From: a virus
Taxonomy: Duplodnaviria; Caudoviricetes
Reading direction: 5' to 3' (one strand)
IMG/VR virus record: IMGVR_UViG_2700988937_000001
Coordinates: 6,507 to 70,506 of that record
Length of the DNA: 64,000 nucleotides
A model generated the notes under the pieces. It did not search any database. It was not told where the DNA came from and saw only the letters and a list, made by a program, of their open reading frames with translations. The position numbers were made by a program, and so were the translations under genes. This document shows positions 4,573 through 63,984 of this stretch, piece by piece. The stretch's first letter is position 1; the number at the start of each line of letters is the position of its first letter.

Positions 4573-5013
4573 ATGACAGACGTGGATAACCCGGCCTCAC
4601 CAAGCCACAGAAATCATCTGATTTCAACAAACGGGAAACGCGCCGTTCTAATAGAGCCAGAAATCCCACTCTTAGAATCAACAGTTTCACAACTGCTGGA
4701 AGAGTTGGACGGGCACTATTTGGAGCGGTGCGGTTTCATATCCAAGCACGAACAAAATATCTACCCCGTTCACAACGCGCACGAGTTCGCGTCCATGAAT
4801 TTCTATATGGACGAAGACGATGCTGTAGAAGCCATTCGCAATATCTATGATCGTGATCATGATGAAATCATGGGGATTTATCATACGCATCCGAATGGTT
4901 ACCCTTGGCCGTCACCACGAGACATCTTGGGATGGCCGAAAGTAGAACTTGGGTGGCGTTACTTTTTGGTTTCACGGGGGAATGTCACGGAGTGGAGGCT
5001 CATAAGTGACTAG
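4573..5013 (+). CDS. JAB/MPN+ (JAMM) metalloprotease
   Basis: N-terminal ERCG (catalytic Glu) and the HxHx7SxxD motif YHTHPNGYPWPSPRD. Confidence 0.85.
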   Translation: MTDVDNPASPSHRNHLISTNGKRAVLIEPEIPLLESTVSQLLEELDGHYLERCGFISKHEQNIYPVHNAHEFASMNFYMDEDDAVEAIRNIYDRDHDEIMGIYHTHPNGYPWPSPRDILGWPKVELGWRYFLVSRGNVTEWRLISD

Positions 5014-5920
5014 TCCTACCCCTCATGATCGCGCAGACGATTACATGGAGCTTAGAAAACGATGGTTGAACAGATACGCACGGGTTCAGGCTCAGGCCGA
5101 CAAGAAACTCCGGGATGCTCTTATTCAAGCAGCGGAAGATGCGTACAAACAATTGATATCGGAGACTTCAAAAAGCACGTTTTCGGCACATGTGAAAAGT
5201 GCCCAAATCCGCATCCTGCTAAAGGAAATTAGGGGTATCCTTGATGACCTCTTCGGAGAAGAACTCAAAATTATCCATCTTGGACAATCAGACGCAGCTA
5301 TCGCCGCTGTCATGGCGTTCGCCGACACAGATCGAGATTACCTTAACGCCGTTTTCAAAGCCTCCGGAGGAAACACAGCAGATTTTATTGAAGGGCAAAA
5401 ACGTTCGGCTGTTACCGGGGTCGCCCACGCAATTTCCCGATTCGCAAAAACTGATAAAAGCCTATCGCAAAGAGTGTACGATACACGTGCCCTTGCAAAC
5501 GGATGGGTTAAACAGCGAGTTACTTCACATATTATTCGGGGAACGGGCGCAAAAGAACTTGCAAGGGATGTTCGCAAGTTTATCAAACCGAATACGCCTG
5601 GCGGGGTTAGCTACGCAGCGATGCGTCTTGCGCGCACAGAAATTAATAATGCGTTTCACGCGACGAGTGTCGCACTTGCAGAAGATCGACCCTGGGTAGA
5701 GGGAATGCGCTGGAATCTCAGCGCAACGCATTTGACAAAGAAGCACGATAACTGTTTGTGCGAAAGATACGCTGGTCAAATCTTTTCTATCGGAGACGTG
5801 CCAGGAAAGCCGCACCCACAATGTCGGTGTTTCGTCACGCCTCAAGTCGAATCATTGGACGTCTTTATGCGTCACTTGACGAGTGGACAATTTAGGAGTT
5901 GGATAAGTGAAGCAGCATAA
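5006..5920 (+). CDS. MuF/SPP1 gp7-like minor head protein
   Basis: RLARTE and PHPQCRC motifs; located in the head module. Confidence 0.85.
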   Translation: MTSPTPHDRADDYMELRKRWLNRYARVQAQADKKLRDALIQAAEDAYKQLISETSKSTFSAHVKSAQIRILLKEIRGILDDLFGEELKIIHLGQSDAAIAAVMAFADTDRDYLNAVFKASGGNTADFIEGQKRSAVTGVAHAISRFAKTDKSLSQRVYDTRALANGWVKQRVTSHIIRGTGAKELARDVRKFIKPNTPGGVSYAAMRLARTEINNAFHATSVALAEDRPWVEGMRWNLSATHLTKKHDNCLCERYAGQIFSIGDVPGKPHPQCRCFVTPQVESLDVFMRHLTSGQFRSWISEAA

Positions 5921-5942: not shown

Positions 5943-6728
5943 GTGTCTGAGAACATTTCTTTCCCGTGGAGCAAGCGAATGGACCCGATGTTTTCTGTGA
6001 ACGCAGAGGAAATCGCGAAGCGAGTTCTGCCCATCTTCGGTGGTACCTCCCCCGAAACTACGAGCACGGAGACCGCGCAGACCACGCAGACTCCGCAGAC
6101 TGAAAAGAAGGACGAAGAGAAGTCTTCAGATTCGGGCAAGAGCGAGCCGCAGAAAAAGGAATACTCGCCCGAAGAAGTCTCGTCGATTCTTGAACAGGTC
6201 GCAGAAACTCAGGCCAAGCTCGAAGAAGCAACTAAGAAACTCAAGACTTTTGAGTCTGAGCAGGAAAAGCAAAAGCGCGCTGCGATGAGCAAGGAAGAAG
6301 CGCTTCAGGCTGATTATGAGCAGGCTCAGCAGATCATCGTTAAGCTTGACGCTGCTCTGAAAAATCAAGCTGTGATCAATGCGATCAATGGTTTCAAGGA
6401 CATTCAGTTCCATGACACGAAGTTTGTTCTGAACGAACTGAAGAATTCCGCCCCCGAGATTTTCGAAGACATGGAAGTCGATTTGGACGGCGGAACGGTT
6501 ACTGTTTCGGGTGTGGAAAATCACCTTCGCAGGATTGCCAAGGAAAAGGATTGGGCAGTCAAGAAAATTTCGACTCCCGAAAATTCGAATCAACATCAAA
6601 ATCCGACCCCGGTTCCTCGTGGGTCGGGTGCTCCCCCGGCTAACCCCGGTCTCAGCGGTGACAAGGCGACACGACGCAAGGCTCTCGCTGAGAAGTTCCC
6701 CGTGATCAGTCATGGACGTAGGCTGTGA
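5943..6728 (+). CDS. Capsid scaffolding protein
   Basis: Acidic, coiled-coil, with a Pro-rich C-terminus; upstream of the capsid genes. GAAGGA RBS before GTG 5943 (ORF track start 5907). Confidence 0.75.
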   Translation: MSENISFPWSKRMDPMFSVNAEEIAKRVLPIFGGTSPETTSTETAQTTQTPQTEKKDEEKSSDSGKSEPQKKEYSPEEVSSILEQVAETQAKLEEATKKLKTFESEQEKQKRAAMSKEEALQADYEQAQQIIVKLDAALKNQAVINAINGFKDIQFHDTKFVLNELKNSAPEIFEDMEVDLDGGTVTVSGVENHLRRIAKEKDWAVKKISTPENSNQHQNPTPVPRGSGAPPANPGLSGDKATRRKALAEKFPVISHGRRL

Positions 6729-8864: not shown

Positions 8865-9551
8865 ATGGGCCGATTTGTTGATTTGAATCAACGTCTCTCG
8901 GAAGAGGATAAAGCGTATCTGCGCTCTCGCGGTCGTGGTTATCTGATCCCGGCGAACGAGCGTCGATTCGGCACGAACGAAAATCCGCGTGAGCCTGAAG
9001 AGCACGAGCAGGCAGGACAAAATGCGATTTCTCCGTTCTACCAACCGGAAGATCGCGAGGCTGCGGTTTATGACAAGGGTGGTGCTCCACTCCCCGGCAC
9101 TGTTTTGGATTACAACACTGGACGTGTTGCGGATCGTGAAAACGGAAAGCTCGTGGAGTTCACCGGGCCAGGTCATACTCCTGGTGCCTTCGATCTTCAA
9201 AGCACACGAGGCTTGGAATATGCCGAAGGTGGATTCGTCGGATACGATGTCGATGAAAATGGCAATCCCGTTGACGACGAAATTGATGAAGACATCGTTG
9301 CGCATGTTCTCGCCGTGTCGAACGTTACGGCTCTGAAGAAGGAAATCAAGGAACGCGGTGGTGAATATGATTCTGACGCGAAGCGTCAGGATTTGGAAAA
9401 CACCCTCGCCATTCTTCTTCAGGATTTGCGCGATGCGGGCAATGAGCCGTTCGCTTTGCCTGCTCCCGATGGCACCAGCTTCGATTCGACCGGTGCTGGT
9501 TCTGACGGTGCCTACGAAGATGAAGACGAAGAGGACGACGAAACGGAGTAA
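8865..9551 (+). CDS. Acidic protein with a HeH/Rho-N-like motif
   Basis: NVTALKKEIKERGGEYDSDAKRQDL resembles HeH/LEM/Rho-N helices, which are often found after phage MCPs. Confidence 0.6.
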   Translation: MGRFVDLNQRLSEEDKAYLRSRGRGYLIPANERRFGTNENPREPEEHEQAGQNAISPFYQPEDREAAVYDKGGAPLPGTVLDYNTGRVADRENGKLVEFTGPGHTPGAFDLQSTRGLEYAEGGFVGYDVDENGNPVDDEIDEDIVAHVLAVSNVTALKKEIKERGGEYDSDAKRQDLENTLAILLQDLRDAGNEPFALPAPDGTSFDSTGAGSDGAYEDEDEEDDETE

Positions 9552-31147: not shown

Positions 31148-31526
31148 CAAGATTCAACTGATTGCCACACTCCTATTCGGCGGTGGCGGGTTGCTTGCTG
31201 GTCTCATTGCAATTTTTATGGTGCGTGCGAACAAAGGAAAAGTTGTCGCCGACACCAAAGAAACTGAGATGAGAGCTATTCAACTTTCGGATTCGATAGA
31301 TGCCGAAAGAGAAAAGCGATGGCAAGCAAAAGTTGATAACGTTAAACAACAGTGGGAAGAAGACGTTGACGAACTTCGTGAAGAAATCGGTTGGCTAAAA
31401 CTTTTGATTGAAAACCATGTCCCTTGGGACTGGGAGATGCAGCGTAAAATGACGATGGCAGGGATTGAACATCCCAAGCCACCTACGCTAAACTACATCA
31501 AAGGCCGAACTCCGAAAGAGGCATAA
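31140..31526 (+). CDS. Membrane-anchored coiled-coil protein, lysis cassette
   Basis: N-terminal TM, then a coiled coil, ending ENH.PWD...PP.L. Confidence 0.7.
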   Translation: MFDKIQLIATLLFGGGGLLAGLIAIFMVRANKGKVVADTKETEMRAIQLSDSIDAEREKRWQAKVDNVKQQWEEDVDELREEIGWLKLLIENHVPWDWEMQRKMTMAGIEHPKPPTLNYIKGRTPKEA

Positions 31527-31843
31527 TGCACCCTCGTACCCGTGTCCCCCAGTCAACGGAACTACGCTCCCCCTCCGGCGAATTGATTGGCGATGAACGA
31601 CAAAAAATCTATATCGCTGCGCTGGAAAAGCAAATTGTAAGATTGTCAATTAGAGACGTGCAGTTCCGTAGCGCTCTTGAGGCCGCGACCGGACGCCCGT
31701 ATGACTCATTCGATCCTCGTGGTATGAGCTACGAGGATATTTGTGAAGTCATCGCAAGCGACCTCGCCCGTGGTCTGAATTTGTCAATACAAGAAGCACG
31801 ATCGCTCGTGCAGGAAAACTCCCAAACGGCAAATCCATCGTAG
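31526..31843 (+). CDS. Hypothetical protein
   Basis: TAATG overlap; last gene of the late operon. Confidence 0.65.
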   Translation: MHPRTRVPQSTELRSPSGELIGDERQKIYIAALEKQIVRLSIRDVQFRSALEAATGRPYDSFDPRGMSYEDICEVIASDLARGLNLSIQEARSLVQENSQTANPS

Positions 31844-32077
31844 ATGGAAAACCCAATTTAGGGCTGCGCGCACATATAGTTTGTAGAGCTAGCTCACAAA
31901 CCGATTCCTTCGTGATCCCGTTCGTCGCAGGAGGAATCACGCAGTAATGCGCTTAAGCATTATGCGCGAGCATACGCAGGGCTGCTTTAAAACCATCTGA
32001 CATTAGTCTTGACAAAAGTCTTGATCTTTTATGTCCGGCTCTTATCGTCCTCTTAAGTTACTGGTCGGTAACCCCGT

Positions 32078-32154
32078 CTGACCTGGGGTTTTGTGCCGTT
32101 TTGGCTGGTGGGAGGTGGTTTCCGGCGAAAAACCGGTCCTGACCTGGGGTTTTG
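32078..32154. repeat. Direct repeat CTGACCTGGGGTTTTG x2 (32078-32093, 32139-32154)
   Basis: Exact 16-bp copies; related copies at 60577 and, inverted, at 63924 and 63961. Confidence 0.85.
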
Positions 32155-32181
32155 CGGCGAATTTGTCGGACGGTGTAGTGT
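32152..32181 (+). promoter_or_regulatory. Putative SigA-like promoter (TTGCGG-N18-TAGTGT)
   Basis: Partial consensus match upstream of the first early gene. Confidence 0.4.
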
Positions 32182-32246
32182 TCTCGGCGTCGATCAGCAA
32201 CCGGCTGGTCGTGGTCAGATCAAGACAGTCACGAGAGGCGAGAACT

Positions 32247-32963
32247 ATGTCGCAAAACCTGCTTAATTCGCTGAGCGAAGCTCAGATTCAGCGACTGCTT
32301 GCAGTCGCCGGAATCGAAACCGCCGAAGGCGGTTCGGCGAAGCCGGAATCCGAACCGGCGAAGCCGGTTTCGGATCGGACCCGGTTCATGGTGATTCGCG
32401 CGATTAACGCGAGCAGCGTCCCTGACGACGAAGTCGTCACCGTTTCGGCGGAAAGCGACGAAGTCGCTTACTGGGGCGACGGCACCCCGGTCACCTTCGG
32501 TGACTTGCGATTCGCCGTCGAAGACGGCGCAACGCGAAAGGACGGCACGAAGTGCCGCGACTACCCGAACACGGCGCTGCTTACGCAGGACGCTGCTTAC
32601 GCAGCGTTGCAGATCGCCAATCGCTATCCGCCGAAGGCGGCGGAAAAGCGTCAGGGTCGGCCGAAGGCCGCTGCGAAAAACGCGAGTGATTCGGCGAAGC
32701 CGAATGACGACCGGCTCGCTCGGCTCGAAGCGCTCGTGCAGCAACTGGCCGAAGGCCAGTTCCGCGAGTCGCAGCAACCGGCGAAGCCGGTTCCGGCCAA
32801 GGGTCACGTGAAGGCCCCGCAGCGCCGCAACGAAGTTGCGGAAATCGCCAGCGAGCTGGCGATCGACATCGCCGAAGGCGATGTTGTGCGAATCGATGGC
32901 CAGCTGTGGCAGGTCACCGTGCGGGCCAATGGCACGCCCGGTTTCCGCAAGACCATCGTTTAG
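32247..32963 (+). CDS. Hypothetical protein (238 aa) whose coding sequence carries a hairpin array
   Basis: GAGAGG RBS before ATG 32247; visibly GC-richer than its flanks. Confidence 0.75.
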   Translation: MSQNLLNSLSEAQIQRLLAVAGIETAEGGSAKPESEPAKPVSDRTRFMVIRAINASSVPDDEVVTVSAESDEVAYWGDGTPVTFGDLRFAVEDGATRKDGTKCRDYPNTALLTQDAAYAALQIANRYPPKAAEKRQGRPKAAAKNASDSAKPNDDRLARLEALVQQLAEGQFRESQQPAKPVPAKGHVKAPQRRNEVAEIASELAIDIAEGDVVRIDGQLWQVTVRANGTPGFRKTIV

Positions 32964-32992
32964 CCCGAAGGGCTAAATTCCGCCGAAGGCGG
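32271..32992 (+). repeat. Array of C-GAA-G triloop inverted repeats (17 on + strand, 1 on - strand)
   Basis: Each stem was checked by eye; see findings. Confidence 0.92.
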
Positions 32993-33017
32993 GCACCGAA
33001 TCCCGGTGCCCGCTTTT
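32989..33017 (+). terminator. Intrinsic terminator-like hairpin
   Basis: GCGGGCACCG-AATCC-CGGTGCCCGC followed by TTTT. Confidence 0.65.
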
Positions 33018-33049
33018 GGCGTTTTTTCGCGCGCGTTTTCACGCGCGTT

Positions 33050-33127
33050 GCGCATACGTGCGCGTTTTTATTTGGGCCACCCTTTAGGGTTGACAATTCC
33101 CAATTGTCGGCGCGCATACGTGCGCGT
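33050..33127. repeat. Direct repeat GCGCATACGTGCGCGT x2 (33050-33065, 33112-33127)
   Basis: Exact copies flanking TTGACA and the palindrome GACAATT-CCC-AATTGTC. Confidence 0.85.
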
Positions 33128-33195
33128 ATTTATGGCGCAACTCAGAATGAGTTGCGCCCTTTGTTGTCCGCACACACGAAAGGAAATTTTGGACA

Positions 33196-33576
33196 ATGAG
33201 CATTGGAGAGATCTACTTCGGATTGCAGGAAACGATGCCGCTGCCCAGCACAGAAGTTCCGACTTGCGATTTCTGCGGGCTGGATGGCGAAATGGTCTTC
33301 GTCTACAGCGGAGTCGATGCCGTCGGGCCGTTCGGTGGCGGGTTCTCAAATCTCTGCCAGTTCTGCGATGAAATCAATTCGCTGCTCTGGGACTTGTCGG
33401 AGATTAAAACGCGCAGAGGCGCTTTTCGGGTTGGTACGATCCCGATTGAAGGAGATGGCGAAACGGAGTACTTGAACTTCGCCACTTTCCGTGAGGCTGA
33501 CGAATTCGTTCGCACTCGTCAGCACAATTACATTCCCGCGTGGCACGTTGATCGCGCTGGAAATGAGATTCGATGA
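33196..33576 (+). CDS. Hypothetical protein with 2 CxxC motifs
   Basis: AAGGA RBS; CDFC and CQFC. Confidence 0.7.
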   Translation: MSIGEIYFGLQETMPLPSTEVPTCDFCGLDGEMVFVYSGVDAVGPFGGGFSNLCQFCDEINSLLWDLSEIKTRRGAFRVGTIPIEGDGETEYLNFATFREADEFVRTRQHNYIPAWHVDRAGNEIR

Positions 33577-37571: not shown

Positions 37572-38876
37572 ATGGGTTACCACACTCGCGGCTACTACAA
37601 CACCAAGTGCTTCAAGGGCAACACCGACAAGACCGGTTTCGCCTGGTGGTACGATCAGTCGCTTGAAGACCCGAACAACCCTTCGCACTTCCCCGGCCCG
37701 ATTCCGGTCGAACTCATGCGGCGAATCTTCGGATGGACAGCTCACGAATCGGTTGAGCTGGTCGCAAAGTTCATGATCGATGGCAAGGAGTACGAAGTTC
37801 CGGTTCCGGCTGATCAGTACAAGGCGCTTGGTCGCGGTGACTGGATCGTTGACGGAATTCCGGAAACGGAAGAAGTTGGCGCTTCGAAGATTCTCTCTGT
37901 TGTCTCCGGTGATTACGGAATGCAGCAGCTCAAAGAAATCTTCATCACCAACGTGGCCGATCTTCTGAACGGTGCTGACAACATCGTTTTGGAATCGTTT
38001 GGAGAATTGAAGTGGGGCCGTCGCGCATTCGCTTCAGTGTCTATCCCAGAGAATCTTCTCAACAACGATTCGGGGCTGGAATTCCGACCGATCATGACGA
38101 TTGTGACATCGTTCGACCGTTCGATGGCAACCAAGTACGTGCGGACCTACGGAATTCCGGTGTGTGACAACACCGTGAATTACGAACTCGCTCGTGCCGG
38201 TGAAAAGGATGGGCACTTCGTTCTTCGTCACTCGAAGAATTCGGCAGCGCGACTGCCGGAGGCGAAGAAGCTTCTCGGGTTGCTTTCGGAGCAGGCAGAA
38301 GAGATGGACGCCTGGCTCACAGAGTTGACTCGCACCGAAGTCAGCGAACAGCAATTCCAGAAGTGGCTTGATGTGATGGTTCCGGTGCCGGAAATCAAGA
38401 AGACCGTCGTCACGGTCAAGTCGATTCAGGGCGAAGACACGCAGATCGAAAAGGTTTCCACCAATGCTCAGACAATCGCGCTTCGCAAGCGTGACAAGCT
38501 GATCGAGATGTGGGACCGTGACCCGCGAGTCAAGGACGTTCCCCCGTCGCGTGCGAAGATTTTCCAGCTTTGGAATACCTTCATGCAGTACGAAACGGGT
38601 GTGAAGGCCACCAAGGATTTGATGGGTGGCAAGGATGCTTCCGAACTGGACAGGAAGAATGCGAAGATTCGCGCTCGGATTGAAAAGAACATGGAAGCGA
38701 CCATCAATTCCGAGAACAGCAGTTCTTTCCTGAAGGAAGACATTCGCGCCTTGGACGCCATCGCAAAGATTCAGGCCGACGAACTGGAGACAGTTTCGAT
38801 TCCGCTGGGCGGTGGCACTGCGACGGCAACCAAGCCGAAGACGACTCGCTCGCGTAGCAAGTCGAGCAACAACTAA
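37572..38876 (+). CDS. DUF932-like phage/plasmid protein
   Basis: GEL..GRRAF, TSFD.S, PVCDNT and RHSKN motifs. Confidence 0.75.
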   Translation: MGYHTRGYYNTKCFKGNTDKTGFAWWYDQSLEDPNNPSHFPGPIPVELMRRIFGWTAHESVELVAKFMIDGKEYEVPVPADQYKALGRGDWIVDGIPETEEVGASKILSVVSGDYGMQQLKEIFITNVADLLNGADNIVLESFGELKWGRRAFASVSIPENLLNNDSGLEFRPIMTIVTSFDRSMATKYVRTYGIPVCDNTVNYELARAGEKDGHFVLRHSKNSAARLPEAKKLLGLLSEQAEEMDAWLTELTRTEVSEQQFQKWLDVMVPVPEIKKTVVTVKSIQGEDTQIEKVSTNAQTIALRKRDKLIEMWDRDPRVKDVPPSRAKIFQLWNTFMQYETGVKATKDLMGGKDASELDRKNAKIRARIEKNMEATINSENSSSFLKEDIRALDAIAKIQADELETVSIPLGGGTATATKPKTTRSRSKSSNN

Positions 38877-38886
38877 ATAGTTCAAA

Positions 38887-38925
38887 GCGACGGGGCCATT
38901 TCCGAAACGGGGGTGGCCCCGTCGC
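38887..38925 (+). terminator. Terminator-like hairpin (no U tract)
   Basis: GCGACGGGGCCA / TGGCCCCGTCGC stem immediately after the stop codon. Confidence 0.6.
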
Positions 38926-38949
38926 CATCCAACAAACAGAAAGAAAATC

Positions 38950-39096
38950 ATGAGTCGAAACATAAATTCGGATGAGGTCAAAGATTTCATCGAATGGCTC
39001 TATGACGAGCACGACATTTCTTTCATAAGGCCGGGGGAAGATCTTTCTGCGGAATACATCAAGGCCCTCTGGGATCAATTTTTGGACGGTGAATAG
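38950..39096 (+). CDS. Small hypothetical protein (48 aa), not in ORF track
   Basis: Manual translation MSRNINSDEVKDFIEWLYDEH...; AGAAAG RBS. Confidence 0.55.
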   Translation: MSRNINSDEVKDFIEWLYDEHDISFIRPGEDLSAEYIKALWDQFLDGE

Positions 39097-39333
39097 CCTA
39101 TGGATTCGGTGATCGAGTCAATGCTCATCGGTGCCGTGGCGGGTTATGTGGTCGCCAAATTTGAAATATGGCGCTACGAACACGCTGAATTAGTTCATCG
39201 AATTCTTTGGGGAATTCAGTGAAACCAATTTTTGAGATAATCGGTCTCATAGCGATGGCCGCATGGCTCGCATTCTGCGTGTACTGGGGCGTCGTGCTTG
39301 AAAGAAACTATCCGGTCAACCAGAAAGAAGACA

Positions 39334-39579
39334 ATGACAATGACAGTGAATATTGAGCAGCTTCGCAATGATGGCTATTGCGCAGTTGCGTACACCAAGG
39401 ATGGCAAATTCTACGATGCCTGTGGCAACGTGGAAACAGTTCGGACAATGGCAAACGAAGGGTATCGAATTGTTGCCATTGCAAATGATGGCGTGGTGAA
39501 CGTCGAAGAGATTCAGGCCATCGCAGATTACGAACTCGCAGCCGCCATTGACTGCTTTGGGGAGGATCACCGCAAATGA
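39334..39579 (+). CDS. Hypothetical protein
   Basis: AGAAAG RBS. Confidence 0.65.
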   Translation: MTMTVNIEQLRNDGYCAVAYTKDGKFYDACGNVETVRTMANEGYRIVAIANDGVVNVEEIQAIADYELAAAIDCFGEDHRK

Positions 39580-60639: not shown

Positions 60640-60813
60640 ATGGCTTCCAATGATGAAAACCAAAATTCCGAAGCCCCAGAAGATTTCGATGAAGAGGCTC
60701 GCCTCGCCTTTTTACAGGGTTACTGTGAACTAGCTAGTGAAACTCTTCTGGAAATGAAAACCAAACTGACCCAGGTTAGTGACAGCTTTAAGAATCTGAG
60801 GCCCGAAAATTGA
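60640..60813 (+). CDS. Small acidic hypothetical protein
   Basis: GGAGG RBS before ATG 60640. Confidence 0.55.
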   Translation: MASNDENQNSEAPEDFDEEARLAFLQGYCELASETLLEMKTKLTQVSDSFKNLRPEN

Positions 60814-63518
60814 GCGTTCCGACCGTGATGAATCCGTACCGGGACACTGCCACCAAGTACTACAACAACGCGTGGTTCGGTCCTCTCATCTTGCCGTACA
60901 AGATGAAAGAAAAACCGCCCAGTGCCTACACCGGACGGCAGGCGGATTACCCTCAGAAAGAAACCATCAAAGAGTGGATCAATGACGGTGAGAGACACAA
61001 TATCTGCATTCGCCTGGCGGGTGTTGACAAAGAGCATGAAATCATCGGGATCGATGTAGACGATTATTGGAAGGGCGACAAGAAAAAAGACGGGGGAGAA
61101 CAACTTCAACGGCTTGTCGATTCGCTTGGGCCGCTACCGGATACGTGGATTAGCAGTGCGCGTACCGATGGAACAAGCGGGATTCGATATTACCGGGTTC
61201 CACGCGGTCTGGCTTTTCGGGGTAAGGCTGACAAGGATATTGAAATTATCCAAAAGCGTCACCGATACGCAATCGTCTGGCCGTCAATCCACCCTGACGG
61301 AGGAACGTACTGGTGGTTCCCGCCAGGGATAGCTCCCGACAAAAACGGGAAGTCGGTGTGGGACGGAGTTTTACCTGACGCCCGACAACTGCCATTGCTT
61401 CCTGAGTCGTGGATAGAATTTTTATCCAACAACAGGTTGGTTATGCCCAAAGATGGACTTATCGACATGGATACGCCAGTCGATAACGTCTATGACTGGG
61501 CGACCGAAACCTTCCACGGCGACGATGACACGCAGCCGTGTACGAAGATGCGCGAAAAACTCGACAAGCACATCTTGAAGATCAAGAACAGCAGTACGTT
61601 TCACGATCTTCTGGTCAACGCACATTGGAATATTCTCAATCTCGCGTTTGAAGGCCACGTTGGGTGGAATGAAGCGATAAATGAGCTAGAACAAGTGTGG
61701 GCCAATGCGGTTGCCGAACGCGGTGGAACAACTGTGCGCGACCTCTCGACGCTAAATGGAGAAATTTTCCGGTCGAGAATTCAAGCTCTGAGGCAGATAA
61801 AAGCAAAATCTGATGACCGTGTTGAGCTTGGGGCCAAGCCGCTGGACCCGTGCTGCCTGGTGACCGGAGCGTGCGGTGGGGACGCTGCTGTGCCGGTCTC
61901 TGATAGCGACGATGGGACCGATGACCCGCTGTCGGACGTGCCTCAAGGCGCGATGAAAGGTGTGCCTGACTATGAAACTAACGATGACGGTAACGCACAA
62001 CATTTCGTAGATATGTTTTCGTCGTTGGAGACCGGACCTGCAATGCGTTATGCAGAAGGTGCCGGTTGGATGGTTTGGCACAAAGGAAAAGAAGGAAAAA
62101 CCGGGCACTGGGAACTTGATCCTGAAGGCGATCAGGTTGTCCGACGAATGTGGCAAAAAGTCAAGAAACGACAATCTGCTTATGCTGATGCGTGTTTTGG
62201 TGACTGGCAACAGAAGATTCAAGATTTCGCAAACGGTCAGGCTACCGAAGCTGATGTGAAAGCAGCCAAGGCGAGGTATGACAAGTGGAATCGATGGAGC
62301 GAGATGTCGGGAAACAACCGACAAGCGGAAAACGCGATCAAAGCCACTCGTTCAATACCCGGTGTTTCGATTTCTGTGAATTCACTAGACCGCAATCCGT
62401 TCCTCTTGGGTGTTGCCAATGGGGTAGTGGAACTAGGGGACGAACAGAACATCCGGTTGAGGACAGCGACGCCAGAAGATTTGATCACGCTGAACACAAA
62501 TCAACCTTACGAACAACCTTCAAAATTCGCGATGGAGAAGTGGCAGGAGTACCTAAACACGTTTCTTCCTGATCCAGATTTGCAACGCGTTACGCAGATC
62601 GCGATGGGTCACTGCTTGATCGGAGGCAATCCTGAAAAGATTCTGATCGTTCTCAAGGGCAAAACTAATACTGGTAAATCTACGATGATCAGTGCGATAG
62701 AAAGTGCTATTGGAGATTATGCGAAACCTGTTACTCAAACCATTTTCCAAAATCACAAACTCAATCCAGCTCTGGCATACGCGCTCACAAAACGGATCAT
62801 TGTATGTTCTGAATTTGACGAGAAGGATGCGCTTTCAGCTAGTCAAGTTAAGAGGCTCACGGGCGGTTCTGATAAAATTTCTGCTGAACTCAAAGGATCT
62901 AACACTCTCATTGAGGGTGTACCCCAGTTTGTTCCGATTCTCGCAACCAACGAAGTTCCTTCAATTTCAGGTGCAGACAAGGCTCTTGAAAACCGACTCT
63001 ATGTGATTCCGTTCAACGTCACGCCTCAAACTATCGACAAACGATCTGCGATGGTTATCGAAAAAGTGTGTGGTGTGGCTGTGTTGAACTGGCTTATTGA
63101 GGGTTATCGCATGTATCGGCAGATGGGAGAGTTGCCGAGAACAAATCAGATCAAAGCTGAAACTGCTGATTTCATGAGCGATCTGGACCCAATTGCAATG
63201 TTCGCACATGAGTGCATAGAGCGAGTGGATCAAGATGGCAAGCGTGGTTACATTAAAAATCCAGATATGTACTTACGGTTCAATCGTTGGTGGACTGAAA
63301 ATGAATTCAAGCACAATGACAAGCCGAGCCAACCGTTGTTTACGAAGAGAATGCGCGCTTTGGGATATATCCAAAGGCAAGCAACCATTGACGGAGATAA
63401 CGGTAAATGGTGGTTTGGCGTAGGATTTAAGAAAACCAAGAAGAGCAATGTTCTCAATATGCCCAATTTAAGCAAGACCAAAACTGTAAGTCAGACGGAA
63501 ACAGGAGATTTGATATGA
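60810..63518 (+). CDS. Bifunctional primase-polymerase / D5-like SF3 helicase
   Basis: N-terminal Prim-Pol (GIDVD, PSIHP); D5-like NGVVEL; Walker A GKTNTGKST; ATNE motif C. Confidence 0.9.
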   Translation: MSVPTVMNPYRDTATKYYNNAWFGPLILPYKMKEKPPSAYTGRQADYPQKETIKEWINDGERHNICIRLAGVDKEHEIIGIDVDDYWKGDKKKDGGEQLQRLVDSLGPLPDTWISSARTDGTSGIRYYRVPRGLAFRGKADKDIEIIQKRHRYAIVWPSIHPDGGTYWWFPPGIAPDKNGKSVWDGVLPDARQLPLLPESWIEFLSNNRLVMPKDGLIDMDTPVDNVYDWATETFHGDDDTQPCTKMREKLDKHILKIKNSSTFHDLLVNAHWNILNLAFEGHVGWNEAINELEQVWANAVAERGGTTVRDLSTLNGEIFRSRIQALRQIKAKSDDRVELGAKPLDPCCLVTGACGGDAAVPVSDSDDGTDDPLSDVPQGAMKGVPDYETNDDGNAQHFVDMFSSLETGPAMRYAEGAGWMVWHKGKEGKTGHWELDPEGDQVVRRMWQKVKKRQSAYADACFGDWQQKIQDFANGQATEADVKAAKARYDKWNRWSEMSGNNRQAENAIKATRSIPGVSISVNSLDRNPFLLGVANGVVELGDEQNIRLRTATPEDLITLNTNQPYEQPSKFAMEKWQEYLNTFLPDPDLQRVTQIAMGHCLIGGNPEKILIVLKGKTNTGKSTMISAIESAIGDYAKPVTQTIFQNHKLNPALAYALTKRIIVCSEFDEKDALSASQVKRLTGGSDKISAELKGSNTLIEGVPQFVPILATNEVPSISGADKALENRLYVIPFNVTPQTIDKRSAMVIEKVCGVAVLNWLIEGYRMYRQMGELPRTNQIKAETADFMSDLDPIAMFAHECIERVDQDGKRGYIKNPDMYLRFNRWWTENEFKHNDKPSQPLFTKRMRALGYIQRQATIDGDNGKWWFGVGFKKTKKSNVLNMPNLSKTKTVSQTETGDLI

Positions 63519-63769
63519 CAGAATGCGGCAATTGCCATCGAACCGATGTTGACGAAACCAAAGAGGGCAACTGGTTAACTTGGGTTTCGTGGTGCGAGGG
63601 TAACAAATTTATTTCTACACTCTTTTTGTGTGATCTCTGCTTTGAGGATGGCGACTATGAGGTCGGCGGTACAGGCGGGCTGGTGGACTACGGGTGGTCA
63701 GACGGGCACCAGTTGGCCGACAACTCTGAAACTTTTGCCACTCTGAAACACATGCGAAACCCTGCATAA
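63515..63769 (+). CDS. Hypothetical protein with CxxC pairs
   Basis: AGGAG RBS; ATGA overlap. Confidence 0.6.
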   Translation: MTECGNCHRTDVDETKEGNWLTWVSWCEGNKFISTLFLCDLCFEDGDYEVGGTGGLVDYGWSDGHQLADNSETFATLKHMRNPA

Positions 63770-63984
63770 GTCCTGGTCAAAGGCATTTTAGTTACAGAGT
63801 TTCAGAGATTACAGAGATTTAATCAAAATACACACGATATAAAGACAACGAAAAACTAAAACTACATACAGCACTTTCCCCTATAGCCGACGATGACCCC
63901 GATACCTGAAACTTCTGTAACTTCGCAGGTCAGGGCGTAATTTCACTGAAACCCAACACTGAAACCCCAGGTCAGACCTGAAAC
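63726..63984. repeat. Iteron-like CTG(A/T)AAC heptamers in both orientations around an A-rich spacer (putative origin)
   Basis: About 10 copies, listed in findings. Confidence 0.65.

Follow-up and report, generated by a model that had tools for sequence, protein, structure and literature searches.

Mini-hairpins of the d(C-GNA-G) type have been described at the G4, RSF1010 ssiA and N4 initiation sites, and these motifs bind single-stranded DNA-binding protein (SSB) poorly (Kimoto and Hirao 2026, PMC13037366). The RNA versions are much less stable, with a melting temperature of 39 C given for r(GCGAAAGC) (PMC13037366). The subject of this article is a dense array of hairpins with this kind of loop, written into a protein-coding gene, gene 47 of mycobacteriophage Patience. 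The stretch analysed (the window) covers 64,000 nucleotides, positions 6507-70506 of the 70,506-bp Patience genome, and the coordinates below are those of the window. Seventeen hairpins of the array have a C-GAA-G loop. All 17 have the C-G closing pair and at least one further G-C pair by which the d(C-GNA-G) motif is defined, and the array is best classed as a form of the mini-hairpin signal written over a protein-coding gene.

The known initiation signals, including RSF1010 ssiA with its RepB' primase, share with the array the loop, the closing pair and the short GC-rich stems. Their action is strand-specific, as that of the array would be, and Patience likewise encodes a primase of the Prim-Pol type. 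However, the known signals come one to three at a time, are non-coding, have conserved flanks and work with a known enzyme, whereas the array consists of about 20 hairpins with differing stems in a translated open reading frame (ORF). Nor does the array fit the definition of single-strand initiation (ssi) signals, namely one or two conserved signals of ~40 nt in a defined oriV. Priming of the ssi type by the phage Prim-Pol is a candidate function that is suggested by analogy. Promoters of the N4 type, an idea raised in a preliminary description of the locus, also match the array in geometry (a 5-7 bp stem and a 3-nt purine loop), but here there are 17 GAA hairpins and they lie on the sense strand of a co-directional gene. 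A set of N4-type promoters was rejected. No giant virion RNA polymerase is encoded among the largest ORFs (2215 aa, tape measure; 1100 aa, minor tail; 1086 aa, Pol III alpha) or listed in Table 1 of PMC4324244.

Patience has been studied closely as a model phage, and its gene 47 had already drawn attention. The genome has a GC content of 50.3% and gene 47, at 62% GC, is one of two departures from it (Pope et al. 2014, PMC4324244). It was described as having no mycobacteriophage relatives and no assigned function, and horizontal acquisition was suggested (Pope et al. 2014, PMC4324244). Gene 47 encodes a real protein, made early, because gp47 was detected by mass spectrometry in infected cells (Pope et al. 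2014, PMC4324244). Of 81 infected-cell proteins it is the sole one present at 30 min and absent at 150 min, for which reason it is described as an early protein with rapid turnover (PMC4324244, section 10). Peptide data led to a revision of its start (PMC4324244), which fits the 238-aa frame with an ATG start and not a 290-aa ORF with a TTG start. That start lies at 32247, not at 32248. The main texts of PMC4324244 and PMC4912749 do not mention hairpins, palindromes, stem-loops or inverted repeats, and a literature search found no paper describing the gene 47 array. By title, none of the mini-hairpin papers among the matches listed is on mycobacteriophages.

The array is statistically exceptional, strand-biased and almost confined to one gene. 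Perfect palindromes centred on CGAAG were counted on the + strand, with a stem of at least 4 bp unless stated. Of the 23 in the window, 17 lie in 32271-32992 and 6 elsewhere, only one of which has a stem above 5 bp (at 9373). In the whole 70,506-bp genome, 17/23 palindromes with a stem of at least 4 bp and 16/18 with a stem of at least 5 bp fall inside 760 nt. The array stems are perfect and 4-8 bp long, and only one stem sequence is used twice (32353 and 32776); the others differ. Within the ORF there are 16 CGAAG pentamers. Fifteen have a stem of at least 4 bp and one (32727) has a stem of 1. Two more C-GAA-G hairpins follow, one across the stop codon and one just before the terminator. The array begins after codon 8, leaving the start region clear, and extends to the terminator. 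The preliminary description had listed all 17 inverted repeats, the reversed hairpin at 32490, the other stems at 32291, 32590 and 32844 and the single stemless pentamer, and all of this is borne out. The only other long C-GAA-G hairpin of the genome (9373-9389, 7-bp stem) is located within virion protein gene 24.

The density is not limited to one way of counting. When any hairpin with a stem of at least 5 bp and a loop of 3-5 nt is considered, gene 47 has 22 and they cover 44% of the gene, whereas the 400-nt non-coding stretch upstream has one, covering 3%. Triloop hairpins cover 37.5% of the ORF. Hairpins with a stem of at least 6 bp number 101 in the window; 20 of them are in gene 47, and the mean per equal-sized tile is 1.13. 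The loop also has a preferred orientation on the + strand (17 GAA vs 1 TTC).

Could all of this be a by-product of the protein sequence, of codon usage or of GC-rich horizontal transfer, with Ala/Lys/Pro-rich and acidic motifs that are palindromic by chance? PAKP written as CCG-GCG-AAG-CCG is automatically palindromic, and ~5/15 of the ORF hairpins are of this type. However, synonymous shuffles of the ORF, which keep both protein and codon usage (n=5000), contain a mean of 2.40 hairpins and a maximum of 8, vs 15 observed. Codon-order shuffles (n=5000) give a mean of 0.18 and a maximum of 3, and dinucleotide shuffles (n=2000) a mean of 0.12 and a maximum of 3. For stems of at least 7 bp the ORF has 10 vs 0.27 in shuffles. 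The motifs that encode hairpins are also heterogeneous and use two frames. The GAA loop is a Glu codon in 8 ORF hairpins and spans xCG-AAG (Lys) in 7, with none in the third frame, as the preliminary description had anticipated in claiming more than one frame. A by-product is very improbable on these grounds and on others that come from relatives of the gene.

Relatives of gene 47 are scarce at the DNA level. IMG/VR was searched with an alignment pattern, with the neighbour gp46 and with a homologue (P0017), and none of these found a relative. Two hairpin words found 9 + 2 IMG/VR loci, all single hairpins and unrelated, and a search of the GTDB genomes gave none. A metagenome scan with one query (A2) returned none; with P0017 it recovered a 69-kb metagenome contig, L003. 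The DNA comparison therefore covers Patience, Labelle, Madruga, L003 and two short contig pieces. Over 1.3 kb around the array Patience matches Mycobacterium phage Labelle at 99.2% and Madruga at 97.2%, both of genus Patiencevirus. Among these three phages, 0/11 variable sites of the ORF are inside triloop hairpins (P=0.0056).

L003 is far more distant. Its protein is ~30-35% identical to gp47 and its phage has ~46% GC, and it is syntenic, with the same lysin, holin and gp44-46 neighbours. In its 10.7-kb locus, 15/16 C-GAA-G hairpins lie in the gene 47 homologue, which also has 2 T-GAA-A hairpins, 3 reversed C-TTC-G hairpins and several triloop hairpins with AAA, TTT or TCT loops. The homologue has 34 hairpins in total, covering 60% of the gene, and its loops are oriented in the same way (17 GAA vs 3 TTC), in line with the strand specificity that the preliminary description had proposed. 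In a codon alignment, L003 retains 6/7 alignable Patience hairpins. Two compensatory double substitutions are present in each of three retained stems, six in all, and none of these three stems has a one-sided break. The compensated stems encode LSEAQ -> ISEAD, VTFGD -> LTFGK and AVEDGA -> SVEDRD. Thus amino acids are altered in complementary pairs, even in the modelled core of the protein, where the predicted local distance difference test (pLDDT) score is ~90. This speaks against a by-product of the protein sequence; examples of such pairs are L..Q -> I..D and V..D -> L..K. The reversed hairpin at 32490 encodes T-F-G, the most conserved motif of the protein; in L003 its stem is 8 bp long, with two of the compensatory pair changes (LTFGK).

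Because L003 has an array of its own, because its compensatory substitutions change amino acids and because the three phages show no hairpin polymorphism, the hairpins are under selection, with pairing kept even where the protein changes. Together with the shuffles, the array of the distant homologue with its compensatory changes and the hairpins free of polymorphism mean that the array is a strand-specific nucleic-acid code over a protein gene and not a protein repeat. This is the core of what the preliminary description had put forward, and the checks it suggested (a genome-wide count against codon-preserving shuffles, and a search of orthologues for compensatory stem changes) both came out in its favour. 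It makes gene 47 an unusually clean case of nucleic-acid structure constraining protein sequence in a double-stranded DNA (dsDNA) phage, in which codon pairs change together.

Most of the other hairpins are specific to one lineage, frequently at places where Patience and L003 differ by an indel. A wastewater-metagenome contig has a different 8-bp C-GAA-G hairpin at the DSAKPN site. Hairpin number is kept, and positions are not. What if the hairpins are functionless traces, left by in-frame insertion or duplication of palindromic modules, or by template switching that perfects quasi-palindromes in an often-unwound gene? The turnover of positions and the many hairpins at indels would fit, as would the modules PAKPV, PAKPE and KPKAS, which occur up to 3 times in some homologues, and the homologues that lack an array (judged by protein-level potential). 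But the stems differ, and so are not copies of one element, and 16/18 hairpins are in one gene instead of being dispersed. Compensatory changes and polymorphism-free hairpins indicate purifying selection, and template switching would not fix one loop and one orientation. Functionless traces are decidedly unlikely. Repeats of the repetitive extragenic palindromic (REP), bacterial interspersed mosaic element (BIME) and miniature inverted-repeat transposable element (MITE) kinds are likewise short GC-rich hairpins that sometimes occur in coding sequence. However, these are one sequence scattered over a genome, whereas the array has differing stems in one gene. A dispersed palindromic repeat family was rejected, since near-identical spread copies were not found and one stem sequence alone occurs twice.

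For homologues without DNA, the amino-acid sequence was scored for its ability to encode C-GAA-G hairpins of at least 5 bp. Patience realises 14/14 of its potential sites and L003 (P0027) 13/15, which serves as a check on this proxy. There are 17 metagenomic homologues of gp47, at 32-64% identity, and a 50%-clustered library contains 52 representatives, of which 47 are further ones beyond the first set. In the first set, 18/18 sequences have 5-19 potential sites vs shuffle means of 0.3-1.6. Shuffled proteins thus have ~1 potential hairpin, a further difficulty for a by-product of protein composition. Among the 47 further representatives, 25 have at least 5 potential sites. Over 65 proteins, in-frame palindromic potential around Glu is ~nine-fold above shuffles (239 vs 26.4) and that around Phe, where the T-F-G motif corresponds to the reversed loop, is ~seven-fold above (70 vs 9.5). 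No enrichment is seen around Ala, the residue that corresponds to a GCA loop (31 vs 49.4 in shuffles). The overlay is thus widespread in the family and GAA-specific, but not universal.

The composition of the gene tells a related story. Gene 47 has 63% GC overall and a GC content at third codon positions (GC3) of 0.74 throughout, which taken alone would suit a by-product of codon usage, as would the horizontal acquisition proposed by Pope et al. (PMC4324244). The L003 homologue has 60% GC, and 500-nt windows of its locus outside the gene have 40-52%. This argues against the GC island being a recent import, because a low-GC relative at ~30-35% protein identity shares it. The GC-richness of gene 47, formerly read as import, is therefore reframed by the array. 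An island made by the stems alone was rejected too. The array stems have 71% GC, but outside the hairpins the value is still 62% (0.62) in Patience and 54% (0.54) in L003. A factor beyond stem pairing shapes the composition of gene 47, because GC3 is high outside the stems too.

What would such hairpins do? The reading favoured here, tentatively and short of calling it probable, is that they act as single-stranded DNA (ssDNA) on the non-template strand and form a zone, refractory to SSB, for priming or R-loop formation. The monocistronic gene 47 unit would be opened by early transcription or by a fork. The displaced + strand would then fold into a row of very stable mini-hairpins that bind SSB poorly and hold the region open as an R-loop or bubble. 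The open zone might serve as a structured landing or priming site for the phage Prim-Pol/D5-type helicase and Pol III alpha. Downstream of gene 47 the phage encodes a Prim-Pol/D5 helicase, Pol III alpha, a RecA-like ATPase and nucleases, the protein with Prim-Pol, D5_N and helicase domains at 60810-63518. The working of such a zone can be likened to the RSF1010 ssi signals, the G4 complementary-strand origin and transcription-activated phage origins. That the hairpins work as DNA, and that they serve in priming or an R-loop, are both presumed. Four features favour the DNA form. Loop and C-G closing pair together exactly match the d(C-GNA-G) DNA mini-hairpin (PMC13037366). G.T pairs neither build nor extend the stems: the first mismatch past a stem is G.T in 7/34 cases and A.C in 4/34, and no stem continues beyond it. 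The strand bias puts the stable loop on the strand that transcription displaces. Finally, G exceeds C on the + strand over the full length of the window, as expected of a strand that spends more time unpaired. The zone as proposed also fits an array that fills a self-contained transcription unit, closed by a strong terminator in Patience and L003 alike. Should ssDNA be the active form, the authors would know of no larger natural array of mini-hairpin DNA, and it would provide a handle on how Patience-like phages start replication or transcription.

The layout suggested for gene 47 can be likened to the lambda ori, which is inside gene O. The lambda origin, like those in P22 gene 18 and SPP1 gene 38, lies inside the gene of an unstable early initiator. 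Its iterons have one shared sequence, are bound as duplex and adjoin an AT-rich unwinding region. Gene 47 likewise has a dyad-symmetric cluster in an early gene with a short-lived product of two domains joined by a linker. However, the common element of the array is the loop alone; its stems differ and co-vary, and the GC content is 63%. An iteron origin of the lambda type was rejected, since the stems differ and gene 47 has no AT-rich tract.

Several observations do not sit well with a priming or R-loop zone of ssDNA. The array region, at 63% GC, is unlike classical unwinding elements. The gene 47 mRNA, being identical in sequence, would also fold. With RNA and DNA parameter sets alike, predicted folding is much more stable than in synonymous shuffles (z -7 to -9.6), and nearest-neighbour energies, of which the DNA parameters have no special term for the C-GAA-G loop, are equal for both strands as RNA and as DNA, so thermodynamics does not choose. 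GAA alone is enriched, not GCA or other GNA loops, which hints at recognition of the loop beyond its stability. GC3 outside the stems is 0.76 in Patience and 0.72 in L003 vs 0.50 in other genes. One shared hairpin is lost in L003 (QLAEGQF), and the FAVEDGA stem is weakened to ~3 bp in the wastewater-metagenome relative. Twelve of the 47 further representatives can encode at most one hairpin, so the array is not universal in the family and the protein can therefore exist without it. There is also a more conventional candidate for an origin or pac site. At 63726-63984, 9 of the 22 CTGWAAC words of the window are packed into 260 bp around an A-rich spacer and occur in either orientation. On the genome map this iteron-like cluster is at the right end, after the Prim-Pol/helicase gene and the small gene that follows it. 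Single-strandedness, an R-loop or an origin at the array are proposals made from sequence.

Perhaps the hairpins act in the gene 47 mRNA instead, as a multivalent platform or sponge for an RNA-binding protein of host or phage (maybe gp47 itself), or by setting transcript stability, translation rate or timing. This reading comes next in likelihood and is likewise short of probable. The array coincides with the body of the transcript and spares the start region and the 400-nt upstream stretch, and the sense strand carries every hairpin that has the preferred loop. Predicted RNA folding energy lies well under the values for synonymous shuffles (z -7.1 and -9.5), the choice of GAA and not the remaining GNA loops suggests that a protein recognises the loop, and the early-only appearance of gp47 would fit special control of its message. 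On the other hand, the ~210 stem pairs of the array are strictly Watson-Crick, and G.U (G.T) is unused though it would ease the coding constraint. The triloop is known for stability in DNA and not in RNA (PMC13037366). No Rfam family reaches its gathering score at the locus: in a scan of Rfam 15 the best hits had 31.8, 23.3 and 18.6 bits vs gathering scores of 55, 50 and 75.9. Multivalent protein platforms with variable stems and one loop motif do exist, in the CsrB/RsmZ sponge RNAs and in the dispersed coat-protein packaging signals found in RNA phages like MS2. Their loops are of the GGA or ANYA type, in non-coding RNA or RNA-virus genomes. The array resembles them in having many variable stems with one short loop motif, but differs in its GAA loop, its location in an ORF of a dsDNA phage and its lack of G.U pairing. 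If the hairpins do act as RNA, they would be a new kind of protein-binding platform in Actinobacteria.

The protein itself offers few clues. An RNA-binding fold in gp47 would have helped the mRNA reading, but neither an RNA-binding nor a DNA-binding fold was recognised with Pfam, Foldseek against the PDB or VIA-align. Pfam gave no family, and PHROGs gave phrog_29693 alone, which is of unknown function. The AlphaFold2 model has a mean pLDDT of 67.8, with a core at residues 40-130 near 90. With this model Foldseek found no match in the PDB (best E 0.96). The best hit in a wide VIA-align search (Z 3.6, the Red-beta C-terminal domain) is within noise, and the ESM Atlas returned no usable match.

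A third way for the array to work would be as duplex DNA. Here cruciforms or palindromes would be bound or cut by Endo VII, an HNH or terminase protein or RuvC, starting headful packaging or recombination-dependent replication. The strictly Watson-Crick stems suit this idea, and Patience is circularly permuted, has an unmapped pac site and encodes Endo VII, HNH and RuvC proteins (PMC4324244). Even so it is unlikely. Arms of 4-8 bp are short for extrusion, as a matter of general knowledge, and the half-sites differ, which makes a sequence-specific dimer improbable. A strong strand bias of the loop is unexpected for a duplex or cruciform signal, and gene 47 is far from the terminase genes. A role in packaging or at a genome end, another suggestion of the preliminary description, is not supported by position either, because the genome is reported to be circularly permuted and gene 47 lies mid-map (PMC4324244).

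A broader proposal, itself more doubtful than not, embraces both nucleic acids. Gene 47 might be a dual-coded gene in which a platform of ~20 GAA hairpins, as ssDNA or RNA, co-evolves with its own protein and is a working part of early infection, as a start of replication or priming or as a cis site for gp47. It would then stand for an undescribed class of phage control element.

Table. Gene 47 of Patience, the members of its hairpin array and flanking elements (window coordinates).
Feature	Coordinates	Strand	Remarks
Candidate gene 47 promoter: TTGCGG, 18-nt spacer, TAGTGT	32152-32181	+	Read from sequence
Gene 47 coding sequence, early protein, 238 aa	32247-32963	+	Patience gene 47, 38753-39469 in Table 1 of PMC4324244
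Hairpin, 6-bp stem, C-GAA-G, encodes LSEAQ	32271-32285	+	Kept in L003 as ISEAD, 2 compensatory pair changes
Hairpin, 7-bp stem, 4-nt loop CTTG	32291-32308	+	Similar stem at same place in L003
Hairpin, 7-bp stem, C-GAA-G, encodes ETAEGGS	32318-32334	+	
Hairpin, 4-bp stem, C-GAA-G, encodes SAKP	32335-32345	+	Aligned L003 site has 7-bp stem
Hairpin, 7-bp stem, C-GAA-G, encodes EPAKPV	32353-32369	+	
Hairpin, 7-bp stem, C-GAA-G, encodes PDDEVVT	32423-32439	+	Within folded core by pLDDT
Hairpin, 7-bp stem, C-GAA-G, encodes ESDEVAY	32453-32469	+	
Hairpin, 6-bp stem, reversed loop C-TTC-G, encodes VTFGD	32490-32504	+	GTCACC-TTC-GGTGAC
Hairpin, 7-bp stem, C-GAA-G, encodes FAVEDGA	32513-32529	+	Kept in L003, 2 compensatory pair changes
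Hairpin, 6-bp stem, C-GAA-G, encodes DGTKCR	32543-32557	+	
Hairpin, 7-bp stem, 4-nt loop TTAC	32590-32607	+	
Hairpin, 5-bp stem, C-GAA-G, encodes PPKAA	32628-32640	+	
Hairpin, 5-bp stem, C-GAA-G, encodes RPKAA	32658-32670	+	L003: same arms, AAA loop
Hairpin, 7-bp stem, C-GAA-G, encodes DSAKPN	32689-32705	+	
Hairpin, 8-bp stem, C-GAA-G, encodes QLAEGQF	32743-32761	+	Lost in L003 (QLIEQQF)
Hairpin, 7-bp stem, C-GAA-G, encodes QPAKPV	32776-32792	+	Identical in L003
Hairpin, 7-bp stem, C-GAA-G, encodes RRNEVAE	32825-32841	+	
Hairpin, 8-bp stem, 4-nt loop CGAG	32844-32863	+	
Hairpin, 8-bp stem, C-GAA-G, encodes DIAEGDV	32866-32884	+	
Hairpin, 8-bp stem, C-GAA-G, across stop codon	32959-32977	+	L003 stop codon likewise under a C-GAA-G hairpin
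Hairpin, 5-bp stem, C-GAA-G, overlaps terminator stem	32980-32992	+	One stem position differs in Madruga
Intrinsic-terminator-like hairpin, 10-bp stem, loop AATCC, then T run	32989-33027	+	End of gene 47 unit
Conserved intergenic block, TTGACA at 33090-33095 in palindrome	33071-33126	+	Not part of array
Hairpin, 11-bp stem, GAA loop, A-T closure	33134-33158	+	Just before gene 48

Gene 47 looks monocistronic, a unit that follows the lysis genes and precedes a long rightward operon, because it has a candidate promoter block, a terminator and a separate conserved block downstream (see the table). The preliminary description had made it the first gene after the lysis module. It does lie after that module, but genes 43-46 sit between lysin B and gene 47. 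A strict sigma-70 scan of 31500-33400 found no promoter. A 24-nt block (32161-32184) that includes the TAGTGT of the candidate promoter, ~65 nt 5' of the ATG, is conserved between Patience and L003. At the terminator position L003 has a 14-bp stem and a T run. None of the + strand ORF hairpins is followed by a T run, which is found only at 32981-33021 and after downstream stems. The ORF hairpins were therefore rejected as intrinsic terminators.

The block at 33071-33126 is probably the control region (promoter or operator) of the downstream gene 48 operon. Its counterpart in L003 is at ~6005-6061, with ~55 nt conserved and TTGACA/TTGACT in a palindrome. The palindrome has 7-bp arms and a CCC centre, and one arm change between Patience and L003 is compensatory. 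GC-rich palindromes come after this block. In the place of the hairpin just before gene 48, L003 (6070-6096) has a 12-bp stem with a TTC loop, and the stem sequence is unrelated to that of Patience. Madruga differs from Patience here in two ways. It lacks 17 bp (33043-33059), including one copy of the duplicated GCGCATACGTGCGC palindrome, and it has a rewritten 8-bp patch (33121-33128) just before the hairpin with the 11-bp stem.

An antisense ORF of 192 aa crosses gene 47 at 32229-32807 (-), and in L003 there is one of 237 aa at 4944-5657 (-). Antisense ORFs through the hairpin gene are probably a by-product of stop-free GC-rich palindromes. Right after the gene 46 stop there are two conserved blocks with the common word CAGGGCTGC, at 31844-31990 in Patience and 4681-4830 in L003.

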